A DNA stretch of 64,000 nucleotides from Armatimonadota bacterium (GCA_039811685.1 JBDHZC010000005.1:64001-128000); one strand, 5' to 3'. Counted from the stretch's first letter, positions 6,072-47,369 are shown. Numbers and translations: made by a program. Notes: generated by a model from the letters alone, not told the origin.

Positions 6072-6341
6072 CTATCTGCGCAGGCCGAGTTTGCTGATGA
6101 GGGAACGGTAACGCTCAATATCTTTCTTGCTGAGGTAATTAAGCAAGCGGCGGCGTTTTCCGACCATCATCAACAGGCCTCTGCGGGAGTGGTGATCCTT
6201 CTTGTGCCCCTTGAGGTGCTCTGTAAGCTCGGAAATGCGGGCTGAGAGCAGGGCAACCTGAACTTCAGGCGAGCCTGTGTCAGCCTCGTGGGTCTTGTGC
6301 TCGCCGATAATCTCTGCTTTTCGCTCTTGCAAAAGCGACAT
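6072..6341 (-). CDS. rpsO: 30S ribosomal protein S15 (89 aa from ATG at 6341)
   Basis: [13 protein letters not shown] and [12 protein letters not shown] motifs; AGGAGG upstream; rpsO-pnp synteny. Confidence 0.98.
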
Positions 6342-6442
6342 GTATCGCCTGTTCCTCCTGCGCAAAGTCTGAGGACTGCGCATAACAACGCCGGTCCGCA
6401 GACCGGCTCTTTCAATAATCTCCACGTATGTGAGTCGGCAAC

Positions 6443-6471
6443 AGTTTACCATTCCACTAAACCACTGTCAA
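6443..6471 (-). promoter_or_regulatory. sigma70-type promoter of rpsO-pnp
   Basis: Minus strand TTGACA-17 nt-TAAACT. Confidence 0.75.
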
Positions 6472-6582
6472 CGCGCACGCCCGCATGTTGCTGTGCAGTG
6501 CGACTGCATCCCTGACACGTAGCGATCCTGTCCGCCTGTTCGTCCTGCAGAAGTGTAACTCTCCCGGCTTTCGCAGTCTGAG

Positions 6583-6611
6583 TTGACACGGGCACGCATC
6601 AGGCGTAGTCT
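6583..6611 (+). promoter_or_regulatory. sigma70-type promoter at the head of the cassette array
   Basis: TTGACA-17 nt-TAGTCT, divergent from the rpsO promoter. Confidence 0.6.
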
Positions 6612-6768
6612 TGCAGTTACTGTTCGTCCGGGAGGAAAGCTGTCCTGCTGGTGAGCCGAGTCTTGCGGGCGCGGAGTTTTGCCAGTTCTCCTTCGCCTGC
6701 AGATGCCCAAAGGAGGGCCCGCAGACATGAAACTATCAGCCTGTCCCATGAGGCGGGGGAAGTCCTCG

Positions 6769-7674
6769 ATGAAAAAACACTTAGTCACGCTTATGTTGGC
6801 TATGGCCCTTGCCGTTTCCTTCGCAGGCGCTGCGCCTGTGTTCGCGGCAGATAAGACCGTTGAGACTACGTCTAGCCCAGCGCCGGACGCCCTTGAGCTG
6901 CGAACGGCGTCGGACGCGGACGTGGTGACGATGCTCTCGGATGAACGCGCGATGTACCGCGCCTTTTTTGCGACGGAAGCCGGCGGTCGCGGCTTGACCG
7001 CGGCAAAGCCCCGGTTGAAGCATCTACTCTCAGACCCGGACGAGTTGGTCCGGGTGGAGGCTGCGGGAGCTCTGCTGCGGCTTACTGAGCGCTCCGGTGT
7101 CCCCGTGCTCCGGGCGGCCCTGTCCAACGAGGCGAGCAGGAGCAGACTGACTGCGGCCCGGTACCTGTCTCTAGTCGCAGACAAGCAGGCCGTGGCTGTT
7201 CTGCAGAACTATCTCACGAGCAAGTTATCTTTTGAGCGAGACACCGCCGTGCACGCCCTTGCAGCTCTGAAGGATGACTCGATCGCCTATGCCGCGCTGG
7301 TGGCCGGGTTGCAGGATGAAAACGATCTGGTACGCCAATCGGCCATTTATCTGCTGGGTGGACGCACGGGCGAACGCTCCACCCGGATGCTGCGTGAGAT
7401 CCTCCAAACAAGTCAGGTCCAGATGGAAAGAGGGATGGCAATCTCGTCGTTGGAGCGGCTCGGCACTCCTGCCGTGGTACTATCCATCATAGACGCTCTG
7501 GCGGACGAAAGTCCGGTCGTTAGTGTGGCAGCGCGAAGAGCTCTGCTGAAGCTGACAAGGCGTATCGGTGCGCCGGAGGGGGTCGGGCTGGCGCAGGCCG
7601 AGGATTGGCGCGCCTGGTGGGCGCAACACAGGCAGGAGTATAAGGAACACGGCCTGCCAGGGGCGGGAGGCTGA
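6769..7674 (+). CDS. Exported HEAT/PBS-lyase repeat protein (array gene 1)
   Basis: Signal peptide MKKHLVTLMLAMALAVSFAGA; HEAT motifs such as LSDPDELVRVEAAGALL; C-terminal WRAWWAQH. Confidence 0.85.
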   Translation: MKKHLVTLMLAMALAVSFAGAAPVFAADKTVETTSSPAPDALELRTASDADVVTMLSDERAMYRAFFATEAGGRGLTAAKPRLKHLLSDPDELVRVEAAGALLRLTERSGVPVLRAALSNEASRSRLTAARYLSLVADKQAVAVLQNYLTSKLSFERDTAVHALAALKDDSIAYAALVAGLQDENDLVRQSAIYLLGGRTGERSTRMLREILQTSQVQMERGMAISSLERLGTPAVVLSIIDALADESPVVSVAARRALLKLTRRIGAPEGVGLAQAEDWRAWWAQHRQEYKEHGLPGAGG

Positions 7675-7835
7675 AGAACCCCCAGCGTCCGGCGGAATGA
7701 CCATTTCATGAACAGCGCAGGCTACCATAGCAGCTTCTAGTTCGCGGCGTCACGTGGAGATGAAGGAATCTACGGCCCGGCGGGTCTATTCAGTTGGGCA
7801 GCGAACGGAAGTTGCCTGTGCCGGAAGCTTTCAGG

Positions 7836-7946
7836 GCCGATTGGGAGCAGTGGTGGGCCGAGAACCAGAGCCAGTTCCCGCCTGGCGCCAAGATCAAAGC
7901 TAAAGCTGCGGCCTTCGAACCAGCCGAACCCGCAACGGAGTGGTAG
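7836..7946 (+). repeat. Orphan copy of the 3' tail of the HEAT gene at 14301-15221
   Basis: Encodes DWEQWWAENQSQFPPGAKIKAK, matching the end of that gene. Confidence 0.85.
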
Positions 7947-8046
7947 CGGTGGAACAGCGCTTCATCCGCGCAGAGGAGCGCATCTGCGCATGGACTTGGC
8001 GAATCTTTCACCCACTGGCTCCAGGTGGGGATACCTGGAGAGATGT
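7944..8046. repeat. Structured 103-bp intergenic repeat, copy R1
   Basis: TAGCGGNGGAACAGCGCTTCATCC...CTCCAGGTGGGGA(C/T)ACCTGGAGAGATGT; seven copies, three hairpins. Confidence 0.95.
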
Positions 8047-8191
8047 GATGCAAGACGATGCCTTGAGTGGGTTCTTTACGCCGACGGGTCAGTCCGGCTA
8101 CTACCTCTACAAGAAGCAGTCGCCCAGCGACGTGCGGCTGGAAGGAAGAGAAGTTCCGTACCCGTAGCGCCTATCGGCGAAAGAGGATGAA

Positions 8192-9184
8192 ATGTTTCGA
8201 CAGTTGATCTGGTTTGTCACAGCAGCGCTCCCTTTGCTCGCACTTGTGCTCGCCGCGGCCGCGTGCGGTGCAAGCGATATTCCGGTCGCTGTGCCCGCCC
8301 CCGGAGAGCCGCCTGTTCTGTTCGCTGCCGAGTCAGCAGGTGTGCTCTACACGGCAACTCTGGAGGCGGACAAGCGCGTTGCGGTCATCGCCGCCCTGCC
8401 GCTTGATCGAGTTGCGGAAAAACGGACTTACACAGTGCCGGTACCCGCTCTCGAATACGAAAGTTTCCAGCGGCTCCGCTGGAGACTGGGCAGCGGATAC
8501 GCGTGGCTGCTGCCAACGGTGCTGACGAATGGTGGCTTACGCCGCTACCCGATGTATCGCATTCCGCGCAGCGAACTCGACAAACTCCTCCACGGCAGTA
8601 ACGAAGCCAGCGGAAGCGGCTTGAAAGACATGTGGTTTCCGCCGGGCTTTGCGCCACTCACACGCGCGGACGATGAATCCGGGGTGAAAGGGCAGCCGAT
8701 CTACGGAGACTTCTACCCTATCTCTACATCAGCTATCCGGCAGTTCATTTTGCAGGGCAGCGTACTGAGCGTCTGGGACTACATCGGAAACCCAGACGCC
8801 AAGCGGCCTGGGGGAAGTGACAGAGACCTCACTCCCGTGGCTGACCGAGAGCGGTACTTCAACTGGGTCCGCGTGGTGAAGCTGAAGGCGCCTTTTACGG
8901 AGTCCTTCCACGCGTTTCCTCAGAAGGGCGGGTTCCTGCTGGTTACGGACTCCGGCGCGCTCTACTCCATCACGGGCATCAGCACCGGTACTCCAGCGAT
9001 ACGCAGGGTGGATCTGGGCGACGAGCAGATCAGGGTTATCGTGCAGACGGAGGGTGGATCGGCCATTGCGGCGACGCAGACGAAGCGCCTCGATCTGTCC
9101 TCGGCGCCGAAGCTGTCGCCGCTTTCGCATCCGCACAGCTCACCGACGGCTGCGGCCCTTGAGCTGGCCAAAGCGCTGAAGTAG
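8192..9184 (+). CDS. Putative lipoprotein of unknown function, family X copy 1
   Basis: AGAGGA RBS; lipobox-like VLAAAAC; near-identical to 13020-14012; ends LAKALK. Confidence 0.85.
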   Translation: MFRQLIWFVTAALPLLALVLAAAACGASDIPVAVPAPGEPPVLFAAESAGVLYTATLEADKRVAVIAALPLDRVAEKRTYTVPVPALEYESFQRLRWRLGSGYAWLLPTVLTNGGLRRYPMYRIPRSELDKLLHGSNEASGSGLKDMWFPPGFAPLTRADDESGVKGQPIYGDFYPISTSAIRQFILQGSVLSVWDYIGNPDAKRPGGSDRDLTPVADRERYFNWVRVVKLKAPFTESFHAFPQKGGFLLVTDSGALYSITGISTGTPAIRRVDLGDEQIRVIVQTEGGSAIAATQTKRLDLSSAPKLSPLSHPHSSPTAAALELAKALK

Positions 9185-9414
9185 TAGCGGGGTCGGCCGC
9201 GCTCAGTGAAGGAAGTCAGCCATCGCGGAGTCAAAGAATGGAGAAACAAGTAGCTCAGGCGCAGCAAACCGTTCTGACTCTTGAAGCTGCGACAGCTACC
9301 TGCGCCGATTGGAAGCAGTGGTGGGCCGAGAACCAGAGCCAGTTTCAGTCCGGCACCAGGAGCAAAGCTGAAGCTGCGGCCTTCGAACCAGCCGAACCCG
9401 CAACGGAGCAGTAG
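9185..9414 (+). repeat. Linker repeat: ~80-bp spacer plus degenerate HEAT-gene 3' tail
   Basis: Similar to 12539-12774 and 16382-16611; tail matches 15070-15221 with a frameshift. Confidence 0.85.
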
Positions 9415-9514
9415 CGGAGGAACAGCGCTTCATCCGCGCAGGTGTCCTCACCTGCGCATAGAATTGGCGAATCTTTCACCCACTGGCTCCAGGTGGGGAC
9501 ATCTGGAGAGATGT
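9412..9514. repeat. Structured 103-bp repeat, copy R2
   Basis: Ungapped match to R1; hairpin-1 variant GCGCAGGTG-TCCT-CACCTGCGC. Confidence 0.95.
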
Positions 9515-9617
9515 AAATGGGGGCCCTTCTGCCAGACTGGGACGATGATGATCCCAATCTGAACGGGGCGGAGAACGAGGACCTGGACCAGGTGACACGC
9601 GTCGAATGAGGAGACCA

Positions 9618-11090
9618 ATGGTTTACAATGGAGTTATGGTCGTCGCCCGGCAGAAAGGCCCTGCCGGCCACTATGCAGCTGTCCTCGCGATAGCCGCATT
9701 CGTGTCCGCAGTGTGTGCTGCACAAGCGGCGTGCGAACTGCCAACTCACGGTTGGGAGTTCACAGTCGCAGCGGAGCACACGCCGGCTGTAGCGATCAGT
9801 AGAGACGGCTCGCGCATCGCCGTTTCCGACTGGGCGGCCATCTATCTACTTGACCGGCAGGGCAAGGTGCTGTGGACCGCGAAGGCGCCACCGAAGAGTG
9901 GCTTCGGAGTGACCGCCATCTCTGACACCGGCCATCGTGTGCTGTGCTGGAAGATTCGGCGCCTCCCAAGTGTGGACAACGAGGATATCGACTACAACGC
10001 GGTGCTCTTCAACGGCGCCAACGGGCAGGTGCTGACCGAGATCGAGCTGGACGGGGGCCGAGTGCCGACGGCGCTGTCTGGCGATGGACGGTATATTCTG
10101 GCGGGCTATCCGCCGGACGGCCTGGGCCTGGAAATGGCAGCACAGCCTGATCCCGCCAACTACCTCATGCTCTTAGATGACACCGGCAAGACCGTCTGGC
10201 GCTCAGACAAGCTTGCCCAAAAGCCCGTTGTCGGAGCGGCTTACGGCTTTTTATCCCACACCGGTTCCTATGCGCTGCTCGGCGCAAAAGACCGCCTGAA
10301 CCTTGTGACCATCGGCGGCTATCACCTTTTCGACATTGCACTGACGTCAGACCCTGCCGTTTCCGCCGACGCTGACTTGATCATGATGGGCGCCACACCC
10401 GTGTTGTCCACAGACGTTCAGAAGTATGAGACCGCATGGCCTGTTGTCGCGCCACAGGGTGAGCAAGAGCCGCAGACATGGGGCCATGAGTCCTTTGGCT
10501 TCAAGACGTACACTGCAGCCGCGGCGCTCGCCTTGGTCCGCGTCGGGGATGTGGCCGAGGAGTCGCCTCCCCCGAACCGGCGGCATCCCTTTGCGGAGCT
10601 GGTGTGGGCGCATGGCGAGATCTGGGCGGGAAACCGGGAACGAGTGCTGGATGCGCCGAAGCTTCCGCCCATTCCCGCCGGTAATCCTGGACGGCGCGGG
10701 GTTGCCTACGGATCGGCTGGGCTGCTGGCAATTGTCGACCACACGCTGTTGGCGGCAGAGCTTGGGCAGGAGCACGCGGTGAAGTTGCTACGCCTGCCAG
10801 GGCTGGGGATTGTGAAAAGGGTCGGCGTGTCCAGCAACGCTTCCCGCGCCTACACTCTCGTCGCCGTCCCCGCTGGGTCCGATCTAGTGGGACGCGGCCC
10901 CAGCACGGGTTCGGCGGCTTCCGCTCTTGTCTGCACCGTCTGGGACAGGTCTGCCAAACCTGTTGCAACAATGCCTCTTTCAGAGCAGGAGAGGCCCTTC
11001 GCGATAGCCTTCTCCCACGCAGGCGATCTCCTGATCCTAGCGTGGAAGGGTAAGGTGCAGGCGTTCGAGATCGGAGGCGTCGCCAGGTAA
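9618..11090 (+). CDS. Exported beta-propeller (WD40/PQQ-like) protein
   Basis: GAGGAG RBS before ATG 9618; signal-like hydrophobic stretch; blade motifs VAISRDGSRIAVS, ALSGDGRYILAG, AFSHAGDLLILA. Confidence 0.75.
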   Translation: MVYNGVMVVARQKGPAGHYAAVLAIAAFVSAVCAAQAACELPTHGWEFTVAAEHTPAVAISRDGSRIAVSDWAAIYLLDRQGKVLWTAKAPPKSGFGVTAISDTGHRVLCWKIRRLPSVDNEDIDYNAVLFNGANGQVLTEIELDGGRVPTALSGDGRYILAGYPPDGLGLEMAAQPDPANYLMLLDDTGKTVWRSDKLAQKPVVGAAYGFLSHTGSYALLGAKDRLNLVTIGGYHLFDIALTSDPAVSADADLIMMGATPVLSTDVQKYETAWPVVAPQGEQEPQTWGHESFGFKTYTAAAALALVRVGDVAEESPPPNRRHPFAELVWAHGEIWAGNRERVLDAPKLPPIPAGNPGRRGVAYGSAGLLAIVDHTLLAAELGQEHAVKLLRLPGLGIVKRVGVSSNASRAYTLVAVPAGSDLVGRGPSTGSAASALVCTVWDRSAKPVATMPLSEQERPFAIAFSHAGDLLILAWKGKVQAFEIGGVAR

Positions 11091-11293
11091 CCCGGGTCGA
11101 GAACCCAATGCAGTTGACTTACTACGCCGACTGGAACTCAGAGACCGTAGCGATGGCCGGACTGCTTGCCGGAGGGGACGGCCAGTGCGGCTCCGCCTCA
11201 GGCGCAGCACGACGGCCTGGAGGGCCCGGCCTAGCAGCAGATGGTCGCCTGTCTCACGGATATGAAGACCGCGCTGGGGTGTCCCCAGGCTAT

Positions 11294-11381
11294 GCTTCAT
11301 CCGCGCAGGTGTCCTCACCTGCGCATAGAATTGGCGAGTCCTTCGCCCACTGGCTCCAGATGGGGACACCTGGAGAGATGT
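11294..11381. repeat. Structured repeat, copy R3 (88-bp core, 5' flank absent)
   Basis: Starts at GCTTCATCC and ends GAGATGT; all three hairpins present. Confidence 0.93.
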
Positions 11382-11455
11382 AAAGCTCGACCTGATATCG
11401 AGTGACGTAGCCGGCAGGGAAGCCTCGTATCCATAGCGTTAGAAGGAGTCACTAG

Positions 11456-12538
11456 ATGAAGATCACCGCTGTTGCCAAAGCTCTTCTTGTCTGTTGGTTG
11501 GCGGTCGACGCCGTCAGCCCTGCCGTCGCCGAGAGCTATCTATTCAGTGAAGAGACGAAGCACCCCCTGATCGTCCAGCGCCCGCTGACAGGCATACTGG
11601 TTGATGAGACTATGTACACTCTCTCGATCGCGCCAGAGTCGGGCTATGCGCCTGTACTGACGGAGACGCCGATGACCGCGCTTGCCGCGCCTGTCAGCTA
11701 CGCTCTCACCGCAGTAGCCGACGCCAGACGCCCGGCCTTTCCTGTTCACTGGTCGCTGCGTGGAGGTTTTGTTTGGACGTTGACTGAGTCCGATACGCCG
11801 CTGAGTGGCATAGTGCCGTTTTACTTCAGTCTTCAGCGGACTGCGCTGACTGGCCTGGAGCCGTGTGCCGCAGCCACCACGCATGTGGTCAAGCCCGGTA
11901 CTGTTGCCGATGTGTGGCACGCTCATCTGGCTAAGTGGGAGCGTGTCGCTTTCACTGAGCCCGAGACGCTGAACGACGCGACGCGGGCCGCCCGGCCTCC
12001 CGAGGTACCCTATCCTCTTGCCGCTATCGTGGTGACGGGACCGGTGACCGTCCAGCTTTTCCAGTTGACCGCCCCACATATGATGGGATGGGAGTACCGT
12101 GGGCCGGAGAAGCCTCGGCGGTGGAAAGCCGCGTTTGGGCCGGGGATGGCGCCGATCTCTCCCGAGAGTCAGCGGGGCGTGCCTCTCAAGGAGCGTACTC
12201 ACTCCGGCGACTGGTGGCGCATAGGGATGTTCGACGTTCCCTTCAGCGAGGCCTAGGAAGTGGCCAAGGTCGAAGGTACCTACTACGCCGTGACACAGAG
12301 CGGAGAGGTTTTCTCTCTGGGCGACCTTACCGGGAAAGTAAAGAAGATCGACATAGGAGGCAGACGTGTGACGGCGATTCTGACGCTGGAGGAGAGCGGA
12401 AAGGTGTATCTTTGTTCGCATGAGGACTACGCGCCGCTGTCGGATTCGCCTGGATTCAAATCCATTCCTGGAGGACACCCAGACGTCACCAGATCGGCAA
12501 CGCAGTGCCTGCTGGACCTGGCGAAGGCGTTGAACTAG
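11456..12538 (+). pseudogene. Family X exported protein interrupted by an in-frame TAG at 12254-12256
   Basis: ORFs 11456-12256 and 12260-12538 share a frame; PFSEA*EV aligns with PFAEPFEV of 15380-16381; AAGGAG RBS and signal peptide. Confidence 0.8.
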
Positions 12539-12774
12539 CGCAGGGACTGCCATCCGCACGCAGTGAAGGAAGGCAGCCATCGCGGAGTCAAAGAATCGAG
12601 AAATGAGCGGCTCAGGCGCAGTAAAGCGATCTGAATCTGAAGGCCGCGGAAGCTGCCAGGTCCGATTGGGAGCAGTGGCGGGCAGAGGACCAGAGCCAGT
12701 TTCAGTCCGGCACCAAGATCAAAGCTGAGGCTGGCGCACCCTCGATGTCGCCCGGCCCCGCGGCTCAGCCGTAG
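12539..12774 (+). repeat. Linker repeat: spacer plus HEAT-gene 3' tail
   Basis: Similar to 9185-9414 and 16382-16611. Confidence 0.85.
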
Positions 12775-12874
12775 CGGAGGAACAGCGCTTCATCCGTGCA
12801 GATGAGCGCATCTGCGCATAGAATTGGCGAATCTTTCACCCACTGGCTCCAGGTGGGGACACTTGGAGAGATGT
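12772..12874. repeat. Structured 103-bp repeat, copy R4
   Basis: Ungapped match to R1. Confidence 0.95.
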
Positions 12875-13019
12875 GATGCAAGACGATGCGTTGAGCGGGT
12901 TCTTTAGGCCGGCGGGTCAGTCCGGCTACTACCTCTACAAGAAGCAGTCGCCCAGCGATGTGCGGCTGCAAGATACTGAAGTTCCGTACCCGTAGCGCCT
13001 ATCGGCGAAAGAGGATGAA

Positions 13020-14012
13020 ATGTTTCGACAGTTGATCTGGTTTGTCACAGCAGCGCTCCCTTTGCTCGCACTTGTGCTCGCCGCGGCCGCGTGCGGTGCA
13101 AGCGATATTCCGGTCGCTGTGCCCGCCCCCGGAGAGCCGCCTGTTCTGTTCGCTGCCGAGTCAGCAGGTGTGCTCTACACGGCAACTCTGGAGGCGGACA
13201 AGCGCGTTGCGGTCATCGCCGCCCTGCCGCTTGATCGAGTTGCGGAAAAACGGACTTACACAGTGCCGGTACCCGCTCTCGAATACGAAAGTTTCCAGCG
13301 GCTCCGCTGGAGACTGGGCAGCGGATACGCGTGGCTGCTGCCAACGGTGCTGACGAATGGTGGCTTACGCCGCTACCCGATGTATCGCATTCCGCGCAGC
13401 GAACTCGACAAACTCCTCCACGGCAGTAACGAAGCCAGCGGAAGCGGCTTGAAAGACATGTGGTTTCCGCCGGGCTTTGCGCCACTCACACGCGCGGACG
13501 ATGAATCCGGGGTGAAAGGGCAGCCGATCTACGGAGACTTCTACCCTATCTCTACATCAGCTATCCGGCAGTTCATTTTGCAGGGCAGCGTACTGAGCGT
13601 CTGGGACTACCGCGGAAACCCAGACGCCAAGCGGCCTGCGGAAAGTGACAGAGACCTCACTCCCGTGGCTGACCGAGAGCATTACTTCGACTGGGTCCGC
13701 GTGGTGAAGCTGGAGGCGCCTTTCACGGAGTCCTTCCACGCGTTTCCTCAGAAGGGCGGGTTCCTGCTGGTTACGGACTCCGGCGCGCTCTACTCCGTCG
13801 CGGGCATCAGCACCGGCACTCCAGCGATACGCAGGGTGGATCTGGGCGACGAGCAGATCAGAGTTATCGTGCAGACGGAGGGTGGATCGGCCATTGCGGC
13901 GACGCAGACGAAGCGCCTCGAGCTGTCCTCGGCGCCGAAGCTGTCGCCGCTTTCGCATCCGCACAGCTCACCGACGGCTGCGGCCCTCGATCTGGCCAAA
14001 GCGCTGAAGTAG
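13020..14012 (+). CDS. Putative lipoprotein of unknown function, family X copy 2
   Basis: Duplicate of 8192-9184 at an offset of 4828 bp; differences confined to the 3' part. Confidence 0.85.
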   Translation: MFRQLIWFVTAALPLLALVLAAAACGASDIPVAVPAPGEPPVLFAAESAGVLYTATLEADKRVAVIAALPLDRVAEKRTYTVPVPALEYESFQRLRWRLGSGYAWLLPTVLTNGGLRRYPMYRIPRSELDKLLHGSNEASGSGLKDMWFPPGFAPLTRADDESGVKGQPIYGDFYPISTSAIRQFILQGSVLSVWDYRGNPDAKRPAESDRDLTPVADREHYFDWVRVVKLEAPFTESFHAFPQKGGFLLVTDSGALYSVAGISTGTPAIRRVDLGDEQIRVIVQTEGGSAIAATQTKRLELSSAPKLSPLSHPHSSPTAAALDLAKALK

Positions 14013-14115
14013 TAGCGGGGGAACAGCGCTTCATCCGCGCAGATGAGCTCATCTGCGCAAAGCATTGGCGAGTCCTTCACCCACTGGCTCCAGGTGGGGA
14101 CACCTGGAGAGATGT
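14013..14115. repeat. Structured 103-bp repeat, copy R5
   Basis: Perfect hairpins GCGCAGATG-AGCT-CATCTGCGC and CTCCAGGTG-GGGA-CACCTGGAG. Confidence 0.95.
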
Positions 14116-14300
14116 AAAGCGACGTTCGTGGCGGCAATCAACCAGGAGAGGATCGCGGGTGATAAGGATTACGAGGAGCAGGCCTACGGCGCGGAGGCCG
14201 TGTGCGAAATGGACCTGCTGGAGGAGACGTGCGCGTACGTCACGCCGCCATGTGAGGCGTGTCCATGACCATGGTATGCAGTCCTAGAACGGAGGTCGTT

Positions 14301-15221
14301 TTGAAACTCTTTATTGTGCTACTGCTTGCTGCTGCTCTTTGTGTTACGGCAATATCCGAGGGTGCGTCGGCCGAGCGCACGTGTGCCGCCACCAGGTATT
14401 ACCGCTCCACGGTTTCTGAGTTGGTCGGGCTGCTTTCGAGTGGGCTGTCTATCGACCGGTTCGACGCGGCTCTCGAACTCGGGCGGCGAGGCGATGTGTC
14501 AGTGATCCCTGCAATGAAGGCTGCGCTTGGCGATCCGGAGCGTTTCGTGCGGATGCGGATAGCTGCTGCGCTGCTGGATCTCGGCGATCGAAGCGGCGTG
14601 GAGGTACTTCACGAAGTTGTTACGTCGGGTGAGCCCTACTGGAGTCTGGCAGCGGCGGAGGTGCTTGCCCATCACGGTGACACCTTTGGCCGTGATCTCA
14701 TCAGGAAGGCTCACTCTTCGAGCAGTTGGGTCGCTCGCTCCTCAGCCTTAAGGGCCTCGGCCGACCTTCCGGAGGGGCCGCCCTACGACGCCGTGGCTGC
14801 CGGACTGGAGGACTCGCAGCAGATTGTCCGCTTGACCGCCCTGAGGGCTGCTCAAATGTGCCATGACCCCCGGGTGAAGGATCTGGTCCGCAAGGCGTTG
14901 TCTTCTTCCGATACGCTTCTGAGGGCGCGCGCGGCCATCATAATTGCGGAGGAGGGGCAGCCCGCAGACATTCCGGCTCTGATAGCGCTGTTGACAGCTC
15001 CGGATGGGGTTACCCGTTCTGCCGTTCTCAGAGCACTGCAGTCGCTGACGGGGCGTGCTTCTCCGTCGAAAACCGTTCTGACTCTTAAGGCTGCGACAGC
15101 TATCCGCGCTGAGTGGGAGCAGTGGTGGGCCGAGAACCAGAGCCAGTTCCCGCCTGGTACCAAGATCAAAGCTGAGGCTGGCGCACCCTCGGTGTCGCCC
15201 GGACCCGCGGCTCAGCCGTAG
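14301..15221 (+). CDS. Exported HEAT/PBS-lyase repeat protein
   Basis: GGAGG RBS before TTG 14301; signal peptide; ALGDPERFVRMRIAAALLDLGD repeats; WEQWWAEN tail. Confidence 0.85.
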   Translation: MKLFIVLLLAAALCVTAISEGASAERTCAATRYYRSTVSELVGLLSSGLSIDRFDAALELGRRGDVSVIPAMKAALGDPERFVRMRIAAALLDLGDRSGVEVLHEVVTSGEPYWSLAAAEVLAHHGDTFGRDLIRKAHSSSSWVARSSALRASADLPEGPPYDAVAAGLEDSQQIVRLTALRAAQMCHDPRVKDLVRKALSSSDTLLRARAAIIIAEEGQPADIPALIALLTAPDGVTRSAVLRALQSLTGRASPSKTVLTLKAATAIRAEWEQWWAENQSQFPPGTKIKAEAGAPSVSPGPAAQP

Positions 15222-15321
15222 CGGAGGAACAGCGCTTCATCCGTGCAGAGGAGCGCATCTGCGCATGGACTTGGCGAATCTTTCGCCCACTGGCTCCAGA
15301 TGGGGACACCTGGAGAGATGT
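15219..15321. repeat. Structured 103-bp repeat, copy R6
   Basis: Ungapped match to R1; begins on the HEAT gene stop codon. Confidence 0.95.
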
Positions 15322-15379
15322 AAGTCGCGAATACTGAGCGCAACTGAGATGCACAATGAGAAGCAAAGGACACAGTAAA

Positions 15380-16381
15380 ATGAGGGTACGGAAACGGCCT
15401 CTTCTTCTTCTCTTCGGAGTCCTACTTGTCACCACTCCACCAGCTGTCGGGCAGCCGTCTCCTGGTGTTCGCCTACGTCCTGGTCAAAGCCAACTGGTGC
15501 AGACTCCGCTGACGGCCTCTTCACGTGCGGGCGTTCTTTACACAGTGATCATTGACAAAGGGCGTGCCTTGCTGCGGCAGACGCCTCTTGATACTTCATC
15601 GCCCGTTCGCTTCGCAAGTCTGGAGTCCTCCAGCCGTTTGACCGGTATCGGCCCGATGTTTCCAGCGCATTGGGGACTTGCAGACGGCTTCCTTTGGTCG
15701 CTGGTTCTTGAAGAAGGAGACGCATACTGGGCCAGCCCACATCTAAGCCGCTTCGCGCTGGAGGACATGCGTCTCGTGGACCCGGACAACGCCCTTCCGC
15801 CTCGAGGCGCGCACCGCACAAGGCGCACAGAAGTCCCCCCGTATCCTCTCCTGGATGCCATCGCGGAAGGGTCAAACCGTGACTTACTGGTCTTCCCCGC
15901 GCTTCAGCCCCTGTCGCGCAAATCCGTCCGCCTGTTCGTGCTGCAGCCGCCCGTGCTGACGGTATGGGTGAACGAAGACCCCGCGCTTTTCGCACCACGA
16001 ACGTCCGGACGCAGCGTCGAAGGACGCGTGAAGGAAAAGGGCAGGATTGAGAACTGGTTGAAGGTTGCGTCTATCAGTGTTCCTTTCGCCGAGCCTTTCG
16101 AAGTTGTTGGGTGCGGTTCCGTCTGCTACTTCATCACAGGAAGCGGGGACCTCTATGCAGATAAAGATCTGAAGGCAAGTCCGCAGAAGATCGACACAGG
16201 AGGCAGGCGCGTGACGGCGATTCTGACGCTGGAGGAGAGCGGAAAGGTGTATCTTTGTTCGCACGAGGACTACGCGCCGCTGTCGGATTCGCCTGGATTC
16301 AAATCCATTCCTGGAGGTCACCCAGGCGTCACCAGGTCGGCAACGCAGTGCCTGCTGGACCTGGCCAAAGCGCTGAAGTAG
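15380..16381 (+). CDS. Family X exported protein of unknown function
   Basis: AAGGA RBS; signal peptide; shares AGVLYT, PF.E.F, T.SG.LY and LDLAKAL motifs with other family X genes. Confidence 0.82.
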   Translation: MRVRKRPLLLLFGVLLVTTPPAVGQPSPGVRLRPGQSQLVQTPLTASSRAGVLYTVIIDKGRALLRQTPLDTSSPVRFASLESSSRLTGIGPMFPAHWGLADGFLWSLVLEEGDAYWASPHLSRFALEDMRLVDPDNALPPRGAHRTRRTEVPPYPLLDAIAEGSNRDLLVFPALQPLSRKSVRLFVLQPPVLTVWVNEDPALFAPRTSGRSVEGRVKEKGRIENWLKVASISVPFAEPFEVVGCGSVCYFITGSGDLYADKDLKASPQKIDTGGRRVTAILTLEESGKVYLCSHEDYAPLSDSPGFKSIPGGHPGVTRSATQCLLDLAKALK

Positions 16382-16611
16382 TAGCGGGGTCGGCCGCGCT
16401 CAGTGAAGGAAGTCAGCCATCGCGGAGTCAAAGCATGGAGAAACGAGCGGCTCAGGCGCAGCAAACCGTTCTGACTCTTAAAGCTGCGACAGCTATCCGC
16501 TCCGATTGGGAGCAGTGGTGGGCCGAGAACCAGAGCCAGTTCCCGCCTGGCGCCAAGATCAAAGCTGAGGCCGCACCCCCGGCGTCGCCCGGACCCGCGG
16601 CTCAGCCGTAG
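16382..16611 (+). repeat. Linker repeat: spacer plus HEAT-gene 3' tail
   Basis: Tail 16463-16611 near-identical to 15070-15221. Confidence 0.88.
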
Positions 16612-16711
16612 CGGTGGAACAGCGCTTCACCCGTGCAGAGGAGCGCATCTGCGCATTGAATTGGCGCATCTTTCGCCCACTGGCTCCAGGTGGGGACATC
16701 TGGAGAGATGT
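16609..16711. repeat. Structured 103-bp repeat, copy R7
   Basis: Ungapped match to R1. Confidence 0.95.
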
Positions 16712-16857
16712 AAACAAACAACGTGATGAAGAAGAAGCGTACTCCGAACAGGAGATGTGCGAGAGGCTTACGTTGGACGACTGGTGTACATTTGGTATCC
16801 ACGGGCCCTGCACGGCGTGCGATGATCTCAATGACTAGCAAGATGATGGAGGAAAGA

Positions 16858-17772
16858 ATGACGAAGATGGTAGCGCTGGTTCTAATCTGCGGGTGGTTCG
16901 GCTGGGGTGGTGTCTGTGCTGCGGGGCCGGCTACCCCTGTCACCGCCACAAATGGCTCAGCGACTCGTTCACCGGATTGTGACGAGGCGAGTGTCCCTGA
17001 ATTGATTGCCATCCTTCGTGAGCGTGGAACCTTTGCTGTCCGTGCAGCACAGCTCCTTGCGGATCGCCACGCGACGTCTGCAATTCCGGATCTCGCGCTG
17101 TTGTTGACGGATCCGAAAATCTCTCTGCGGATAAATGCGGCGCGTGCAATGGCGCTCCTGGGAGACCGGAGCGGGTTACCAGTGCTGCGGGCGGCGCTGA
17201 CAGAGGGTGACGATTTCCACGCCTCTATCGCGGCCGCTTTTCTGGCGCAGCTTGGCGACGACAGTGGGCGCGCGGTTTTGGAGAGGGAACTCAGTAGTCA
17301 AAACTGGATCGACCGGAGGCAGGCCCTGTACGCATTGGCGCTTCTTCCGGATGGTCTGTCTGATGTGGCTGTTGCAGCGGCTCTAGAGGACGAAAGGCCG
17401 GAGGTACAAAGAAGCGCGTTTCGTGTGGCCTGGAAAAATGCGTCTGATAGGGTGCGGGAGGTGTTGATTAAAAAGACACAGTCCCCGGATCCGCTTACCC
17501 GCTGGCGGGCGACTGAGGCCCTGTTTATGAGTAACCCGCACCGAAACGCAGAGATTGCTATTGGCATGATTACGGATCCGGACCGCCTCGTACAGGGACA
17601 AACATCCATGATGCTGGCGCATTTCTCCCGTGTGGCTGTGCCTCGGGTGAGCGGGTGGATGAGGAGTGCCGAGCGGGCAAGAGATCTCAAGCAGGCGTAT
17701 CTGGAGTGGCTGGCGGTTAACAGGGACGTGGCGTTCCCGCCAACCGAGCCGGCGCCGCCTGCACCGCAATAG
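16858..17772 (+). CDS. Exported HEAT/PBS-lyase repeat protein (last array gene)
   Basis: GGAGG RBS before ATG 16858; signal-like N-terminus; LLTDPKISLRINAARAMALLGDRSG repeats. Confidence 0.85.
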   Translation: MTKMVALVLICGWFGWGGVCAAGPATPVTATNGSATRSPDCDEASVPELIAILRERGTFAVRAAQLLADRHATSAIPDLALLLTDPKISLRINAARAMALLGDRSGLPVLRAALTEGDDFHASIAAAFLAQLGDDSGRAVLERELSSQNWIDRRQALYALALLPDGLSDVAVAAALEDERPEVQRSAFRVAWKNASDRVREVLIKKTQSPDPLTRWRATEALFMSNPHRNAEIAIGMITDPDRLVQGQTSMMLAHFSRVAVPRVSGWMRSAERARDLKQAYLEWLAVNRDVAFPPTEPAPPAPQ

Positions 17773-17820
17773 CAGCGGCTGCGAGCGGGCAAACGCTCAT
17801 TCAGTCGGAGATACGCACGC

Positions 17821-17852
17821 AAAAGTAAGGGGGCAGCCGGTTGGCCGCCCCC
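17821..17852 (-). terminator. Intrinsic terminator after the PEP-CTERM gene
   Basis: Minus strand GGGGGCGGCC-AACC-GGCTGCCCCC followed by TTACTTTT. Confidence 0.65.
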
Positions 17853-17884
17853 AATTGCTTGAATCACGCTGTGGATGAGACGCT

Positions 17885-18775
17885 CTACACCCGCTTGCGG
17901 CGAACCACCCCTGCCAGTGATACCAGGCCGGCTCCCAGCGCGAGCAGGGAACCCGGCTCAGGCACCAGCGTCAGCGAGAAGTCATCAAAGTAGCCAGTCT
18001 GGCTTCCGAACTTTGAGTTCACTTCTATAACATTGTAGCCGTAGTTGAGCACGGAATTATGAGTCAGCGTCGGATTCACCATGTCGTCAATGTAGAACCA
18101 GACGTCGTTTGTGCCGTCGCCGAGCGCAGGCCCAACCACGATGCGCGCCTGATGCCAACCAACGCTTCTGCTGGTGCTGGTGTTGAACCATCCGTTAGGG
18201 CCGCCGTAGCCGTCGCTGGACCCGACAACGCGAGCCTGATACTTGCTGGTATCCCCGGTGCTTTGCGCTCCCAGTGAAAGCCGCTGGATCTTGCTGGCGC
18301 CGGCGTTCAGGCTGCCCGATCCAGGATAGTCAGTGCCGGAAGGCGCCGTGTTGTAATAGCCAAGAGCGACGTAGTCCTTGAAGTTGCCGTCACCCGCGCC
18401 ACCGACGTCGTAGAACCACCAGTCGAGCGTCAGATTCCCGGTAAAGACGTTGCCGCCGTTGAAGCGATAGGCGATATTCAACCAGTTCTGGTCAATGTCT
18501 GCCCCGCCTACGAAGGCTCCGCGAAGCATGTGGTCACCACTGTGGGGCGTGACGCCGCTGTCGGTCGAAACTACCTGTCCGTTTGGCGGGTTGGGGCCGA
18601 ACCAGGGGTTGCCGGACCCGTTTGGCGCCGAGTTCGCGCCACCGGGGGCATTCTTGTCGAGCGCGCCGATATTGGCGCCCTCAAATCCGTCTGTAAAGAC
18701 GGGAGCCGCCTGCGCCGTGAAAGCTGTGGCCACAACCAAAAGTCCCACCGCGCAGAGGAGCATTCCTCTTTTCAT
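17885..18775 (-). CDS. PEP-CTERM sorting-domain protein
   Basis: Signal peptide MKRGMLL; C-terminal VPEPGSLLALGAGLVSLAGVVRRKR; GAAGGAG RBS. Confidence 0.92.
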   Translation of the reverse strand: MKRGMLLCAVGLLVVATAFTAQAAPVFTDGFEGANIGALDKNAPGGANSAPNGSGNPWFGPNPPNGQVVSTDSGVTPHSGDHMLRGAFVGGADIDQNWLNIAYRFNGGNVFTGNLTLDWWFYDVGGAGDGNFKDYVALGYYNTAPSGTDYPGSGSLNAGASKIQRLSLGAQSTGDTSKYQARVVGSSDGYGGPNGWFNTSTSRSVGWHQARIVVGPALGDGTNDVWFYIDDMVNPTLTHNSVLNYGYNVIEVNSKFGSQTGYFDDFSLTLVPEPGSLLALGAGLVSLAGVVRRKRV

Positions 18776-19818: not shown

Positions 19819-21333
19819 ATGGCGCGCGTCAGGGATATACGCACTGTCTCGGTGCGTACAAAAATCCTCGTGCCGGTTCTCTTCATTGTTGTCGCTGTCT
19901 TTGCCGCTATTCTCTACGGCGCCGCTCTGGTACTGGAAGCGCAGCGGCACGAATACTCCCGAAGAATTGGTAGAAGAGTCTCCAGCGCTGTTGCTGGCGG
20001 GTTGCACTCCGCTCTGATGACTGGACGCAAAACCGAAGCACAGGAAGCCATCCGGGTTATGCTCTCCGAAGCGGACCTCCCTCCCAGTCAAATCGCTATT
20101 CGCAAGCTGGACGGCGCTTACTGGATTCGCGGCGGCGACAATACAATCCCGCCGCATTCGTTTGCGCTGAAACCGTCTCTAAAGGAGAACTCCAGCCGAG
20201 AGTTCAGCGTTGGCGCTGCCCGTTTCATCAATACCACATCAGTTCTCCCGAATGAGCCTGAGTGTCAAAGCTGTCACAGCCCCGCCACCCGAGTGCTCGG
20301 CTATCTCGAAGTGGACCTTCCCGTGGTCTGGGTGCGCCAGCGCCACCAGGCGACTCTCACGGCTATCGCCGTTATTGCGGGGCTGACGCTTCTGCTGCTG
20401 GCTGTTGCAATCGTTTTGTCCGTCCAGATAGCGGTTGTTACGCCGATCAAGGGTCTGGCAAGCGCTATGACGGTGGTTAAGGGCGGGCATCGCGATGTTC
20501 AGGTGGAAGCCGGACCGGAAGACGAGATCGGCATGCTGAGCAGACGGTTCAACGAGATGGTGGATGAAGTGGCTGAGGCGGAACACTCTCTTGTCGAAAA
20601 AGAGCACCAGCTTGCGCGGGCGGAGAAGCTGGCTGGGATTGGGCTGATGGCTGCGGGAATCGCCCACGAGATAAATAACCCGCTGACCGCTGTGTCGATG
20701 GCCGCGGAGAGTATCAATCTCCCCAACGCCACACAAGAGCAGCGGCAAAGGCTGAGCGCCTACATTCTGGAGGGTACGCGGCGAATCCAGGATATTGTGG
20801 CTGAGCTTCTGACGCTGGATCAGAAGCGAGCTTTGAATGTGACTGAGCAGGACGTTGCGGAGATCGTCCACGCCGCGCTGGCTGGCAGACAGATTCCCGG
20901 TAACATCACGGTGCACGCCAGTTTGGCTCCGGATCTTCCAAAAGTTCACGTGGACTGGGAACGAATTGTGAGGGCAATCGGCAACCTTGTGAAAAACGCT
21001 CTCCAGGCGATGCCTGACGGGGGAGAATTGACTTTGTCTGCAGAAGCTGGAAAAGGCGAGGTACTGATTGACATCAAGGATACAGGTGGAGGTATAGCCC
21101 CCGAACATCTCCACCGCATTTTTGATCCTTTTTTCAGCACGCGGGAGGTCGGAGAAGGCTTTGGACTGGGACTGGCTTTTGCGCACGCTGTGGTGAAGCA
21201 GCACGGGGGGGACATAACAGTCAGCAGCGAACCTGGCCGTGGAACGGCATTTACAATCTCGTTGCCCGTTGAGCCGGGAGCGAACCCAGAGGAACCTGGT
21301 GATTCCAGGGACGTGTCAGAGATGGAGGAATAG
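19819..21333 (+). CDS. Membrane sensor histidine kinase with HAMP domain and periplasmic CxxCH motif
   Basis: Two TM segments, CQSCH, DEIGML, AHEINNPL, N/G1/F/G2 boxes. Confidence 0.92.
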   Translation: MARVRDIRTVSVRTKILVPVLFIVVAVFAAILYGAALVLEAQRHEYSRRIGRRVSSAVAGGLHSALMTGRKTEAQEAIRVMLSEADLPPSQIAIRKLDGAYWIRGGDNTIPPHSFALKPSLKENSSREFSVGAARFINTTSVLPNEPECQSCHSPATRVLGYLEVDLPVVWVRQRHQATLTAIAVIAGLTLLLLAVAIVLSVQIAVVTPIKGLASAMTVVKGGHRDVQVEAGPEDEIGMLSRRFNEMVDEVAEAEHSLVEKEHQLARAEKLAGIGLMAAGIAHEINNPLTAVSMAAESINLPNATQEQRQRLSAYILEGTRRIQDIVAELLTLDQKRALNVTEQDVAEIVHAALAGRQIPGNITVHASLAPDLPKVHVDWERIVRAIGNLVKNALQAMPDGGELTLSAEAGKGEVLIDIKDTGGGIAPEHLHRIFDPFFSTREVGEGFGLGLAFAHAVVKQHGGDITVSSEPGRGTAFTISLPVEPGANPEEPGDSRDVSEMEE

Positions 21334-21340
21334 CAGGGAT

Positions 21341-21961
21341 ATGCCTAAGCGAGTCTGGACAGCAGAGCGTGTTGTCGAGGAAATACAGCAACTCGAGAAA
21401 TCGGGCGTCGATCTGAGGCACGGTTCTGTCCAGGACGAGCACAAGAGGCTGGTAAGCGCGGCGATCCGTTACTTTGGAAGCTGGAGAGCGGCGGTTGAAG
21501 CCTCAGGGCTTGACTATGAAAAGCTGCGGCAGTCCTCTGAAGAGCAGCGCCTTCAGAAGATTGGAAAATGGTCGGAGGAGAGGATTCTTGCGGAAATCAA
21601 GGATCTGAAGGACAAAGGAGACGATCTGCGCGCTGTGATGGTCAAGAACAAGTACCCCGCGCTGTTCTCAGCGGCGGTCAGCCCCAGGTACTTTGGCAAC
21701 TGGCGAAAAGCTCTGACAGCGGCGGGAGTGGACTACGATACAGTGCTGTCCCGGTCCCCGCGCGGGCGTCCAAAAAGGACCGACGTCTGGCACGCAGGGC
21801 TGATTCTGCAGAAAATCCGTGAGATGCATGCGAAGGGGCAGAGCCTGGAGTCCGAGGCGATATCTTCGCACTATCCCCGCCTTCTCCGGCTTGCGACAAT
21901 GCGCTTTGGAAGCTGGCACTCTGCGGTGGATGAGGCCCTCTCAAAAGACAACTCCGCATAG
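21341..21961 (+). CDS. Protein with three homing-endonuclease-associated-type (FGSW..A) repeats, putative DNA-binding
   Basis: Repeats RYFGSWRAAVEASGLDY, RYFGNWRKALTAAGVDY, RFGSWHSAV; no nuclease motif seen. Confidence 0.7.
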   Translation: MPKRVWTAERVVEEIQQLEKSGVDLRHGSVQDEHKRLVSAAIRYFGSWRAAVEASGLDYEKLRQSSEEQRLQKIGKWSEERILAEIKDLKDKGDDLRAVMVKNKYPALFSAAVSPRYFGNWRKALTAAGVDYDTVLSRSPRGRPKRTDVWHAGLILQKIREMHAKGQSLESEAISSHYPRLLRLATMRFGSWHSAVDEALSKDNSA

Positions 21962-23517: not shown

Positions 23518-23617
23518 TCAACTCAGGCTCAGCCGCTGCAGCAGGAAGTGGAATCTGCGTGTGCGGGTAGAGTACGGGGACAAAGAGCTATACGGATTGT
23601 TCGGTGATTTTTAGCAG

Positions 23618-24352
23618 ATGGCTGAGCTGAAACAACAACATTTTGACAGTGGTGAATACTGGATAAAGCGGCACGAAGAGTTCGATCGCTCGCATCAGGC
23701 GACCGGGCTTCTCGGCTCTTCAGAGCGATCCAACACCGTGCTCTACGATCTGCGCAGACAGGCGCTGATGGAGGCGATTGGCTCCGTCGATCTCAGTGGG
23801 CGGCGCGTGCTGGACGCGGGCTGCGGGCTTGGCGACTTCTCCCGGTTTTACAAGGAACGCGGGGCGCTGGTGAGCGGGTGTGATATCTCAGATCTGGCGG
23901 CTGAGAAGTGTCAGCAGGCGGGACTTGGTACTTTCCGGGCCGGACGCTTGAAGGACATCCCCACGCTTTTCCCCGGACAGACCTTTGACATTGTTCACTG
24001 CTTTGACGTCCTGTATCACATTGTGGACGATGAGGAGTGGCGCGAAACGCTGGATGCTTTCGAACAGGTCTCAGGACCAGAAACAGTCTGGTATATTATC
24101 GAGCTTGCGCGGGCGAAAGGGTCTTCTGTTCACGTGAAGGTCCGCGGTACACGTACTTACGGGCAAGAGCTGGCAAAGCGCGGGCGCTTCATCGCGCGTG
24201 ACCGTCGTATCCACTGGTTGCTGAGTGTCTTTCCGCGCCTGCACGCCCTCAATCCCCGGCTGTCCTATGCCTTCGAGCGTCTGACAAAGTGGAGCCCGAC
24301 GGCGAAGGCGCCGAGGGGAGCGCTGTGGACGATAAAGCGGGGGCAGGCATGA
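23618..24352 (+). CDS. Class I SAM-dependent methyltransferase
   Basis: VLDAGCGLG motif I; FDIVHCFDVLYH. Confidence 0.9.
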   Translation: MAELKQQHFDSGEYWIKRHEEFDRSHQATGLLGSSERSNTVLYDLRRQALMEAIGSVDLSGRRVLDAGCGLGDFSRFYKERGALVSGCDISDLAAEKCQQAGLGTFRAGRLKDIPTLFPGQTFDIVHCFDVLYHIVDDEEWRETLDAFEQVSGPETVWYIIELARAKGSSVHVKVRGTRTYGQELAKRGRFIARDRRIHWLLSVFPRLHALNPRLSYAFERLTKWSPTAKAPRGALWTIKRGQA

Positions 24353-24398
24353 TGGCGTATGCAATCAAAGCGATGCACGCAGAAAGGCTTTCTGGTCT

Positions 24399-45347: not shown

Positions 45348-45351
45348 GCGC

Positions 45352-46203: not shown

Positions 46204-46290
46204 TGGAGCGCGCTCGCCGGAGCAAGGAGGCGCAGAACGGGTAACTTTTTCCGGAATATCACAAAGCCTTCTTGACTCCCGCCCACCCGG

Positions 46291-47243: not shown

Positions 47244-47340
47244 CCCTCCGCGTCAGATAGCGCCCTACTTATTCCGCATGCTTCTTTCATCCAGCATCGA
47301 TTTCATCTCTGTGCGACTACCCATGATACAATTCGGCTGC

Positions 47341-47369
47341 TTGACGCGGTGCAGAGGCTGCACTAGAAT
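47341..47369 (+). promoter_or_regulatory. sigma70-type promoter
   Basis: TTGACG-17 nt-TAGAAT. Confidence 0.7.

Follow-up and report, generated by a model that had tools for sequence, protein, structure and literature searches.

A 64,000-nt window of DNA from an Armatimonadota bacterium (GCA_039811685.1, JBDHZC010000005.1:64001-128000) was analysed, with attention to a stretch at 6,769 to 17,772 in which eight plus-strand genes for exported proteins are laid out one per interval and divided by seven copies of a structured repeat, here termed E (Table 1). This co-oriented gene array had been singled out in an earlier reading of the window (the original prediction), and it proved to be real and far beyond chance. 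Hydrophobic, signal-like N-termini, also part of that prediction, were recognised by eye in the translations of all eight array proteins. The host genome comprises 3.42 Mb in 15 contigs and is 97% complete. Upstream of the array lie pnp and rpsO on the opposite strand, and its downstream neighbours encode a PEP-CTERM protein (convergent with the array), Rex and a histidine kinase; neither effector nor secretion genes adjoin the array. An open reading frame (ORF) at 21239-21961, which codes for two HNH_repeat (homing endonuclease associated repeat) domains, overlaps with the final part of the histidine kinase gene. The GC-rich hairpin at the far end of the array is the only terminator-like hairpin between genes in 6300-18100, and each main array gene possesses its own ribosome-binding site (RBS) further 3' of E. 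A sigma70-like promoter had been proposed ahead of the first gene, but the TTGACA-17-TAGTCT sequence read there failed the -10 criterion of the promoter scan.

The array genes fall into families of very different depth. H1, H6 and H8 match HEAT_2 above the Pfam cut-off and are mutually 29-33% identical at the amino acid (aa) level, and the other array ORFs have no Pfam match. X2, X5, Y4 and Y7 constitute one family, referred to as X/Y, in which X2 and X5 are 97% identical, X2/X5 and Y7 28%, and Y4 and Y7 40%. The division into three families made in the original prediction was retained as far as the three HEAT genes and the four-member family are concerned. The latter, previously listed as of unknown type, is itself a predicted β-propeller family, and the propeller call made for the 494-aa protein P3 was reduced to sub-threshold leads.

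Table 1 Features of the array and its immediate borders (positions counted from the first letter of the window).
Feature	Coordinates	Strand	Basis
Candidate promoter, TTGACA-17-TAGTCT, weak -10	6583..6611	+	Read from sequence; not listed by consensus scan
H1, exported HEAT-repeat protein, 301 aa	6769..7674	+	HEAT_2 107.8 bits; signal-like N-terminus
Degenerate W stub (HEAT-gene 3' end), no in-frame start codon	7764..7946	+	Self-comparison, reading frames
E copy r1	7943..8048	+	Repeat finding, BLAST, nhmmer
39-codon small ORF ATGTGATG, overlaps ATG-TGA of E	8048..8167	+	Reading frames
X2, exported X/Y-family protein, predicted β-propeller	8192..9184	+	Protein search, predicted fold, Foldseek
Free-standing 58-codon W ORF, own GGAG-N8-ATG	9238..9414	+	Reading frames; no Pfam family
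E copy r2	9411..9516	+	Repeat finding, BLAST, nhmmer
Acidic small ORF, 30 codons, ending in an ATGA shared with the following start codon	9517..9609	+	Reading frames
P3, exported 494-aa protein, propeller-like by weak leads	9606..11090	+	PQQ_2 E 0.022; Atlas clusters
E copy r3, homology begins at 11294	11278..11383	+	nhmmer, self-comparison
Y4, X/Y-family gene broken by in-frame TAG at 12254-12256	11456..12538	+	Translation
W pseudo-ORF, start lost, frame broken	12625..12774	+	Reading frames
E copy r4	12771..12876	+	Repeat finding, BLAST, nhmmer
39-codon small ORF, second copy	12876..12995	+	Reading frames
X5, 97% identical to X2, inside 1374-nt duplication	13020..14012	+	Self-comparison
E copy r5, joined straight to X5 stop, no W	14012..14117	+	Sequence
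Acidic small ORF, 46 codons, 4 Cys, ending in an ATGA shared with the H6 start	14128..14268	+	Reading frames
H6, exported HEAT protein, own C-terminus = W module	14265..15221	+	HEAT_2 73.3 bits; self-comparison
E copy r6	15218..15323	+	Sequence
Y7, exported X/Y-family protein	15356..16381	+	Translation, protein search
Free-standing 58-codon W ORF, second intact copy	16435..16611	+	Reading frames
E copy r7	16608..16713	+	Sequence
4-Cys peptide-like open frame before H8, no clear start	16714..16838	+	Reading frames
H8, exported HEAT protein, start taken at GGAGGA-N5-ATG	16858..17772	+	HEAT_2 73.1 bits
GC-rich hairpin between array and convergent PEP-CTERM gene	17829..17852		Hairpin scan

E consists of a 106-nt core that occurs as seven direct copies between 7939 and 16716, all on the plus strand, with start-to-start spacings of 1468, 1867, 1493, 1241, 1206 and 1390 nt. 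Pairwise identity among six copies is 88-94%, and r3, which lacks the first 16 nt of E, is 75-83% identical to the others. A BLAST search of the 3.42-Mb genome with one E copy returned seven matches, all of them in the array, and an nhmmer profile recovered the same seven as the only full-length copies in the genome. Searches with an exact 21-mer of E gave no match in 185,579 species genomes or in the Joint Genome Institute (JGI) metagenome contigs, and a covariance model of E gave hits of at most 33 bits in 60 relatives, which were later recognised as a dispersed palindrome (see below). E is non-coding, as every frame through it is interrupted in at least one copy or has no start codon; an open 33-codon frame is broken in r7 and an 'EQRFIRA' frame in r2, r3 and r4. 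At the 3' edge of E, homology stops sharply after ...GAGATGT, before five different downstream sequences. At the 5' side, the limit of homology varies among copies with the state of a further module, W, which is present, absent or partial.

In a self-comparison, the repeated unit usually extended beyond E. The segments 7822-9192 and 12647-14020, each containing a W-tail, E, a small ORF and an X gene, are 95.3% identical over 1374 nt, and the X2/X5 unit is a recent duplication. Further pairs were found at 12342-12874 and 16185-16711 (88%; Y tail, W and E), at 9158-9517 and 16355-16714 (87%), and at 15070-15323 and 16463-16713 (93%; H6 tail and E). W itself corresponds to the final 150-230 nt of a HEAT gene (...DWEQWWAENQSQF...). 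It forms the true C-terminus of H6, an intact 58-codon ORF after X2 and Y7, and decayed sequence after H1 and Y4; it is absent before r5, where the break sits between two GTAGCGGNG words. The gene-end stubs had been placed after the repeat in the original prediction, but they precede E in five of the seven copies, and what follows E are small ORFs: a 39-codon ORF (twice), a 30-codon acidic ORF, and two acidic four-Cys frames before H6 and H8. The last two (14128-14268 and 16714-16838) are related to each other and have the Cys pattern C-x7/8-C-x6/8-C-x2-C. The W ORFs at 9238-9414 and 16435-16611 represent a Trp-rich tail of a HEAT protein without a signal peptide; each of them has its own GGAG-N8-ATG, and they match no Pfam family.

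When W and E of five units were aligned together, there were 36 informative sites in eight bipartitions, arranged in blocks: sites 9-43 join r1 with r4, sites 85-91 join r2 with r4, and sites 112-180 join r1 with r2. In the four-gamete test, 392 of 630 site pairs were incompatible, and a permutation of the pairwise homoplasy index (PHI) type gave 0/5000. A patchwork of the same kind was observed among the E copies alone. These results showed that the W-E modules are a recombination (gene-conversion) mosaic.

At least 17 DNA runs, belonging to 13 studies on activated sludge, wastewater and biofilm, contained the array stretch. Four runs from four sludge or wastewater studies, labelled X1, X4, X8 and X10 (not to be confused with the gene names), were compared with the array in 434-nt bins of Logan contigs. 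Between 28 and 30 of the 30 bins were covered per run, and the empty bins, which occurred in three runs, corresponded to one or other of the X2/X5 twins. Long contig pieces exhibited 0-13 differences (at least 99% identity) in all four runs. All array gene segments were found in each of them, and the variation in cassette content expected from the original prediction was not borne out. No credible rearranged joint was detected in the four runs, the single reported joint having a side of 21 nt. Runs X4 and X8 differ from the array at 12475 and 12483, in both cases towards the Y7 state, and in run X4 the Y4 tail runs on as a Y7/X2-type tail, showing that the strain differences at the Y4 tail are of the conversion type, between units. 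Contig depth, a rough measure, was 6.8 against about 5.2 in run X4 and 5.6 against about 4.4 in run X8, and these values hint that both runs carry one X2/X5 twin rather than two. Contigs that match the array and then continue into unlike sequence were seen, for instance, at 10638 and 14468 (both alike in runs X1 and X10), and 14 letters before 9517 (run X4); these loose ends could be other organisms or variant junctions. No variant was listed in the four runs at the TAG of Y4 (12254-12256). RNA runs X19 and X20 contained 0.06 of the array words.

In the original prediction, the locus was interpreted as an integron-like system, in which E would be the attachment site of a site-specific recombinase coded elsewhere and the genes would have arrived as cassettes. 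Such capture would account for one co-oriented gene per interval behind one possible promoter, for the sharp 3' edge of E, for HEAT genes that are no nearer to each other than to a gene in the genome of another family, and for the array being missing beside rpsO in all three same-family genomes examined. However, no integrase, transposase, reverse transcriptase or other recombinase domain was found among the 20 flanking ORFs scanned, in line with what had been reported for the window. The tyrosine recombinases (PF00589) of the genome number two, both on contig C2. An IS110 gene lies on C11 and not next to the array, and two further genes resemble tyrosine transposases of the REP-associated kind (RAYTs). 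The attC sites of integrons contain the core sequences R'' (RYYYAAC) and R' (GTTRRRY), and neither core occurs in any of the seven E copies extended by 10 nt, on either strand. Moreover, E folds as two separate hairpins and not as one site-spanning stem, its 5' homology boundary differs among copies, gene content was the same in the four runs with no credible joint, and the exact-word search found full E nowhere in the species genomes or JGI metagenome contigs. Integron-like capture is thus judged highly improbable. The view that the repeat is neither attC nor a clustered regularly interspaced short palindromic repeat (CRISPR) was supported. The idea that an acquired-defence array arose through successive captures at one particular site was not supported, in view of the missing linked recombinase, the missing attC cores, the constant content and the W-E mosaic.

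The weak hits of the E profile all fell at model positions 62-106 and turned out to be a perfect palindrome, CCTCCAGGTT-GGGA-AACCTGGAGG-GATG. The pattern CTCCAGGTNNGGANACCTGGAGGGATG, with at most two mismatches, occurs at 27 sites of the genome (seven in E and 20 elsewhere), and the reversed control occurs at none. The dispersed form is a 27-30-nt palindrome (CCTCCAGGTTGGGAAACCTGGAGGGATG) whose 20 copies outside the array lie on both strands, with sites at C3:182914-187397, C10:1371-3486, C11:882 and 44499-48066, C5:4631-4855 and 23561-24776, and C1:82390 and 311139. It was also found in five of 52 other genomes of the class (12, 9, 6, 4 and 1 copies) and was absent from five same-family genomes in a fuzzy pattern search. 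Rfam returned only tRNAs for the palindrome and no family. By sequence, the 3' hairpin of E, a third of the element, is a local variant of this repetitive extragenic palindrome (REP)-like sequence, and the GGAG...ATG of E is part of the REP consensus. All seven E hairpins carry private changes (GAGATGT instead of the dispersed GGGATGA; a GGTG/CACC stem), and because these are common to all, the E copies descend from one local ancestor rather than seven insertions. The genome-wide REP-like scatter that the original prediction had raised against itself was encountered by half: the 3' hairpin is scattered and RAYT-linked, and full E is confined to the array.

Two RAYT-like ORFs (C3:184560-185276 and C5:24073-24606) lie within palindrome clusters; they are paralogs, 31% identical to each other, and contain an HUH-like MPxHxH motif. 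Against NCBIfam NF047646, 'REP-associated tyrosine transposase', they score 76.5 and 75.8 bits (E about 1e-21; cut-off 80), and the sole match of the C3 ORF in the Protein Data Bank (PDB) is 4ER8, E. coli TnpArep. Inverted palindromes flank each of them, at 184458(-)/185751(+) for the C3 ORF and at 23561(+)/24750(-) for the C5 ORF, and inverted REPs flanking the gene are the rule for RAYTs according to Nunvar 2010 (PMC2817692). The palindrome and the RAYT-like genes are likely to represent a REP/RAYT system, of which few descriptions exist for this phylum. A second short repeat (GGCTCCAACCTGGAAATCCCGAAATGAGGGG and kin) accompanies many palindrome copies (C10:1300-1420, C5:23590-23700, C3:183700-183760), and several palindrome clusters are situated at contig ends and beside three tRNA genes on C10. 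An intact IS110-family transposase (C11:48238-49494; DEDD_Tnp_IS110 and Transposase_20), beside a Fic-family gene, adjoins palindrome copies and not the array; a 99-codon fragment of this gene is located at C5:23541-23840, beside the C5 RAYT-like gene.

The link with RAYT-like genes opens another route by which cassettes could move, in which the direct REP-derived hairpins would act as IS200/IS605-like single-stranded ends and a RAYT-like enzyme, acting in trans, would cut and rejoin them, so that exported inhibitor or immunity genes could be shuffled, duplicated or acquired with no need of a tyrosine recombinase. Both RAYT-like genes are flanked by the palindrome of which the 3' hairpin of E is a variant, the variant closest to E (GGTG...CACC stem) adjoins the C3 gene, and all seven E hairpins lie on one strand. 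In addition, RAYT cleavage at REPs in direct repeat, by way of circular intermediates, has been proposed for the formation of the interspersed mosaic elements of bacteria (BIMEs) by Nunvar 2010 (PMC2817692). The private changes of the E hairpins nevertheless speak for a single ancestor and not for repeated insertion; neither circles nor re-ordered joints came to light in the four runs, in which contigs break at repeats; and elsewhere in the genome the palindrome is scattered or clustered by RAYT-like genes and never delimits gene arrays. We regard this route as very improbable.

Folding by RNAalifold and of single sequences gave two stem-loops for E, one of 60 nt that is imperfect and one of 9 bp (CTCCAGGTG-GGGA-CACCTGGAG), with 97% of the stem cells paired. 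The Rfam search of E matched no family. Two Rfam hits to naRNA4 within X2 and X5 (27 bits) were below threshold and were rejected, as were readings of E by eye as a sigma-54 or extracytoplasmic function (ECF) promoter, whose spacing was wrong. In all seven copies, GGAG in the 3' arm of hairpin 2 is followed, after a gap of 2 nt, by ATG-TAA or ATG-TGA, and the next ORF begins at or overlaps the stop of this mini-ORF in r1, r2 and r4. This layout, together with the pairing of the stem cells and with five of six transition events in G-C pairs that yield G-U on the plus strand (counted by hand), would suit an E kept mainly by selection as a cis-regulatory RNA, in which a hairpin sequestering the Shine-Dalgarno (SD) sequence and a start-stop mini-ORF couple or set downstream translation and recombination is secondary. 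However, the GGAGGGATG hairpin is the consensus of the dispersed palindrome, which occurs at 20 other sites on both strands and in many contexts, and the SD-ATG look of E therefore seems to be inherited and not designed for the array genes. The 2-nt spacing, the RBS that each main gene has further downstream and the lack of an Rfam match speak in the same direction, making a mainly regulatory E improbable.

On balance, it appears probable, if only just, that the locus is a lineage-specific and probably polycistronic array which is homogenised by homologous recombination around a REP/BIME-like composite element, E, and whose genes are perhaps orphan inhibitor or immunity genes. Its restriction to one lineage follows from its absence by rpsO in relatives and from the absence of the X/Y family, queried with X2, from 52 genomes of the class. 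The array would have grown, and would still be reshaped, by RecA-type homologous recombination between W-E modules, as inferred from the pattern. Duplications such as the X2/X5 unit, and deletions of the kind that removed W ahead of r5, may have come from unequal crossing-over. Gene conversion would hold W-E at 85-95% identity even as the genes themselves diverge to about 30% aa identity. Such growth would call for no dedicated recombinase. In RNA, E would act as REPs and BIMEs do, as an intercistronic stem-loop module.

Several observations weigh against this account. Contigs end at repeats in the four runs, and gene order was checked in part, with r5 bridged by one piece of run X1. Three unrelated-looking gene families share one module, and the HEAT genes are as near to a gene of G032, a genome of another family (33%), as to each other (29-32%); independent gene arrival fits this as well as ancient duplication does. 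The private 60-nt 5' hairpin of E has no relative anywhere. The fold of E has a z-score of only -2.47, and its covariation amounts to one double-change pair, which shuffles equal, so that covariation among seven near-identical copies proves no RNA structure. The RAYT-like ORFs fall just under the NCBIfam cut-off and are sub-threshold on Pfam Y1_Tnp, and 27 palindrome copies are far under the more than 100 per genome that are usual for REPs according to PMC2817692.

For X2, a fold predicted from a seven-sequence alignment was all-β (predicted local distance difference test, pLDDT, 73.8; predicted template-modelling score, pTM, 0.76). Foldseek matched it to Kelch and designed propellers, streptogramin lyase and methylamine dehydrogenase with a probability of 1.0 and template-modelling (TM) scores of 0.36-0.43, and the X/Y family is thus predicted, from this model, to be a generic β-propeller. 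For P3, the leads were a sub-threshold PQQ_2 match (E 0.022) and Atlas PQQ_2/WD40 clusters at 0.90-0.93 with low recognition. A HMMER search with X2 against 1.84 billion (1.84e9) representative proteins gave six matches in all, namely itself or X5, four credible relatives and one spurious match, P0005, a protein with FN3 repeats that was dropped before alignment. The search with Y7 found only itself, and the X/Y family alignment found no match in the genome contig collection.

Relatives are carried by four metagenomic contigs, L046, L047, L048 and L049. On L047, an exported HEAT protein comes after a protein with HEMGH at its end, and a 1080-aa secreted protein is followed by an X relative and a helical protein, after which comes another large protein. 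On L049, a HELGH domain precedes a HEAT protein and a Y relative, and on L048 a Y relative follows a tail that contains Cys, His and YYDPSYG. Hence, on three of the four contigs (L047, L048 and L049), HEAT or X/Y relatives are encoded behind large secreted proteins whose tails are of the HExxH or the Cys/His 'YYDPS' kind. L047:1-8095 carries three tandem large secreted proteins that have common N-terminal and FN3-like segments and different tails, each followed by one or two small exported genes, and this layout resembles a polymorphic-toxin locus. Because the layout of the relatives is that of toxin-immunity or protease-inhibitor pairs, it is a reasonable though tentative hypothesis, with somewhat less than an even chance, that the array consists of orphan inhibitor or immunity genes without toxins. 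The proteins would then be periplasmic inhibitor or immunity proteins kept without their toxins, which is the weakest step of the proposed mechanism. Of the immunity content claimed in the original prediction, the toxin-less character of the array held, and its immunity-like nature is plausible on motif-level homology.

Points against an immunity role come from the relatives and from the host class. The X relative on L046 has no such neighbour and lies beside a housekeeping-like gene; the zincin matches of the upstream domains are sub-threshold (E 0.006-0.016), and the upstream tails match each other by short motifs only (E 0.03 and 0.11), so that the case rests on three short contigs; and G032 has HEAT paralogs without toxins or repeats. 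Tail domains of the L047-L049 type were not found in the array's own genome with these queries, and the array proteins match no named immunity family in Pfam or NCBIfam. The AlphaFold model of the L047 C-terminal domain was unusable (pLDDT 34.5), an Atlas match to transglutaminase-like clusters (score 0.78) is only a lead, and a complex prediction for the zincin-like domain and HEAT neighbour of L049 (score 0.01) has no bearing either way. A less likely alternative, which we consider possible but doubtful, is that the genes encode ordinary lineage-specific periplasmic or surface proteins, for example proteins that serve large adhesin-like ones as partners or chaperones, or an envelope-variation set. 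The absent immunity-family matches and the position of the L046 relative agree with it, as do exported HEAT paralogs that are single or paired in other genomes of the class, without toxins, and the FN3, CARDB or OmpL47-like surface domains of the large L047 neighbours. It is countered by the exported repeat-protein genes lying directly behind HExxH or Cys/His-tailed secreted proteins on three of the four contigs, by the fast divergence of the paralogs, to about 30% aa identity, and by the extreme rarity of the X/Y family.

Taken together, the locus resembles a private set of related genes that may block toxins, and not a novel device for capturing genes. If the genes do confer immunity, it would be a polyimmunity-type array outside Bacteroidales and Proteobacteria, and would point to a second, cheaper route to such arrays, through a REP-derived module and ordinary recombination without a recombinase. 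If they encode plain periplasmic proteins, the locus would be a curiosity of one sludge lineage. It also offers a compact case of concerted evolution, with 250-360-nt modules at 85-95% identity beside genes at about 30% aa identity, and points to a REP/RAYT pair in a little-studied phylum.

Among known systems, chromosomal integrons and clusters of attC sites lacking integron integrases (CALIN) share with the array genes that are co-oriented, mostly lack a promoter and are each followed by a structured repeat of ~100 nt with high similarity among its copies. The array differs from them in lacking intI (not required for CALIN) and the R'/R'' cores, in having two independent hairpins per E instead of one attC stem, in the variable 5' boundary of E with its gene-tail stubs, and in its constant content over four runs. 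The recombinase-associated acquired interbacterial defence arrays of Bacteroidales (rAID-1; Ross et al., preprint 10.1101/471110) resemble it in being co-oriented, toxin-less arrays of possible immunity genes with repetitive intergenic sequence, and the array does contain the at least two co-directional downstream genes with repetitive intergenics by which they are recognised. However, rAID-1 is defined there by a 5' XerD-like recombinase and a GC content below that of the surroundings; the present array has no recombinase, its GC content is not lower (0.597-0.626 against 0.568-0.595 for the contigs), and its genes match no known immunity family. With defining features missing in each comparison, the array is not an integron, a CALIN or rAID-1.

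The REP/BIME and RAYT systems (PMC2817692) correspond to the locus in the dispersal of a short palindrome (here only the 3' hairpin of E), in RAYT-like genes flanked by inverted copies, and in composite intergenic elements within operons. The differences are that the palindrome numbers 27 copies here, that full E is not dispersed, with its seven copies all in the array, that E adds a private 60-nt hairpin amplified in the array only and on one strand, and that the host stands outside the Proteobacteria studied in that work. The orphan immunity arrays of the V. cholerae type VI secretion system (T6SS), attributed to effector displacement and homologous recombination by Kirchberger 2017 (PMC5361080), are similar as heterogeneous, toxin-less gene strings with left-over gene ends, no specific integration site and a recombination mosaic. 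Those arrays lie 3' of a T6SS effector, and their orphans match immunity genes of pairs in other strains, whereas no effector or secretion genes adjoin the present array, its left-over ends derive from a HEAT (putative immunity) gene and not from an effector, and one intergenic element recurs throughout. By analogy, the array would work most like an orphan immunity or paralog array shaped by recombination, combined with a REP/BIME-type element.

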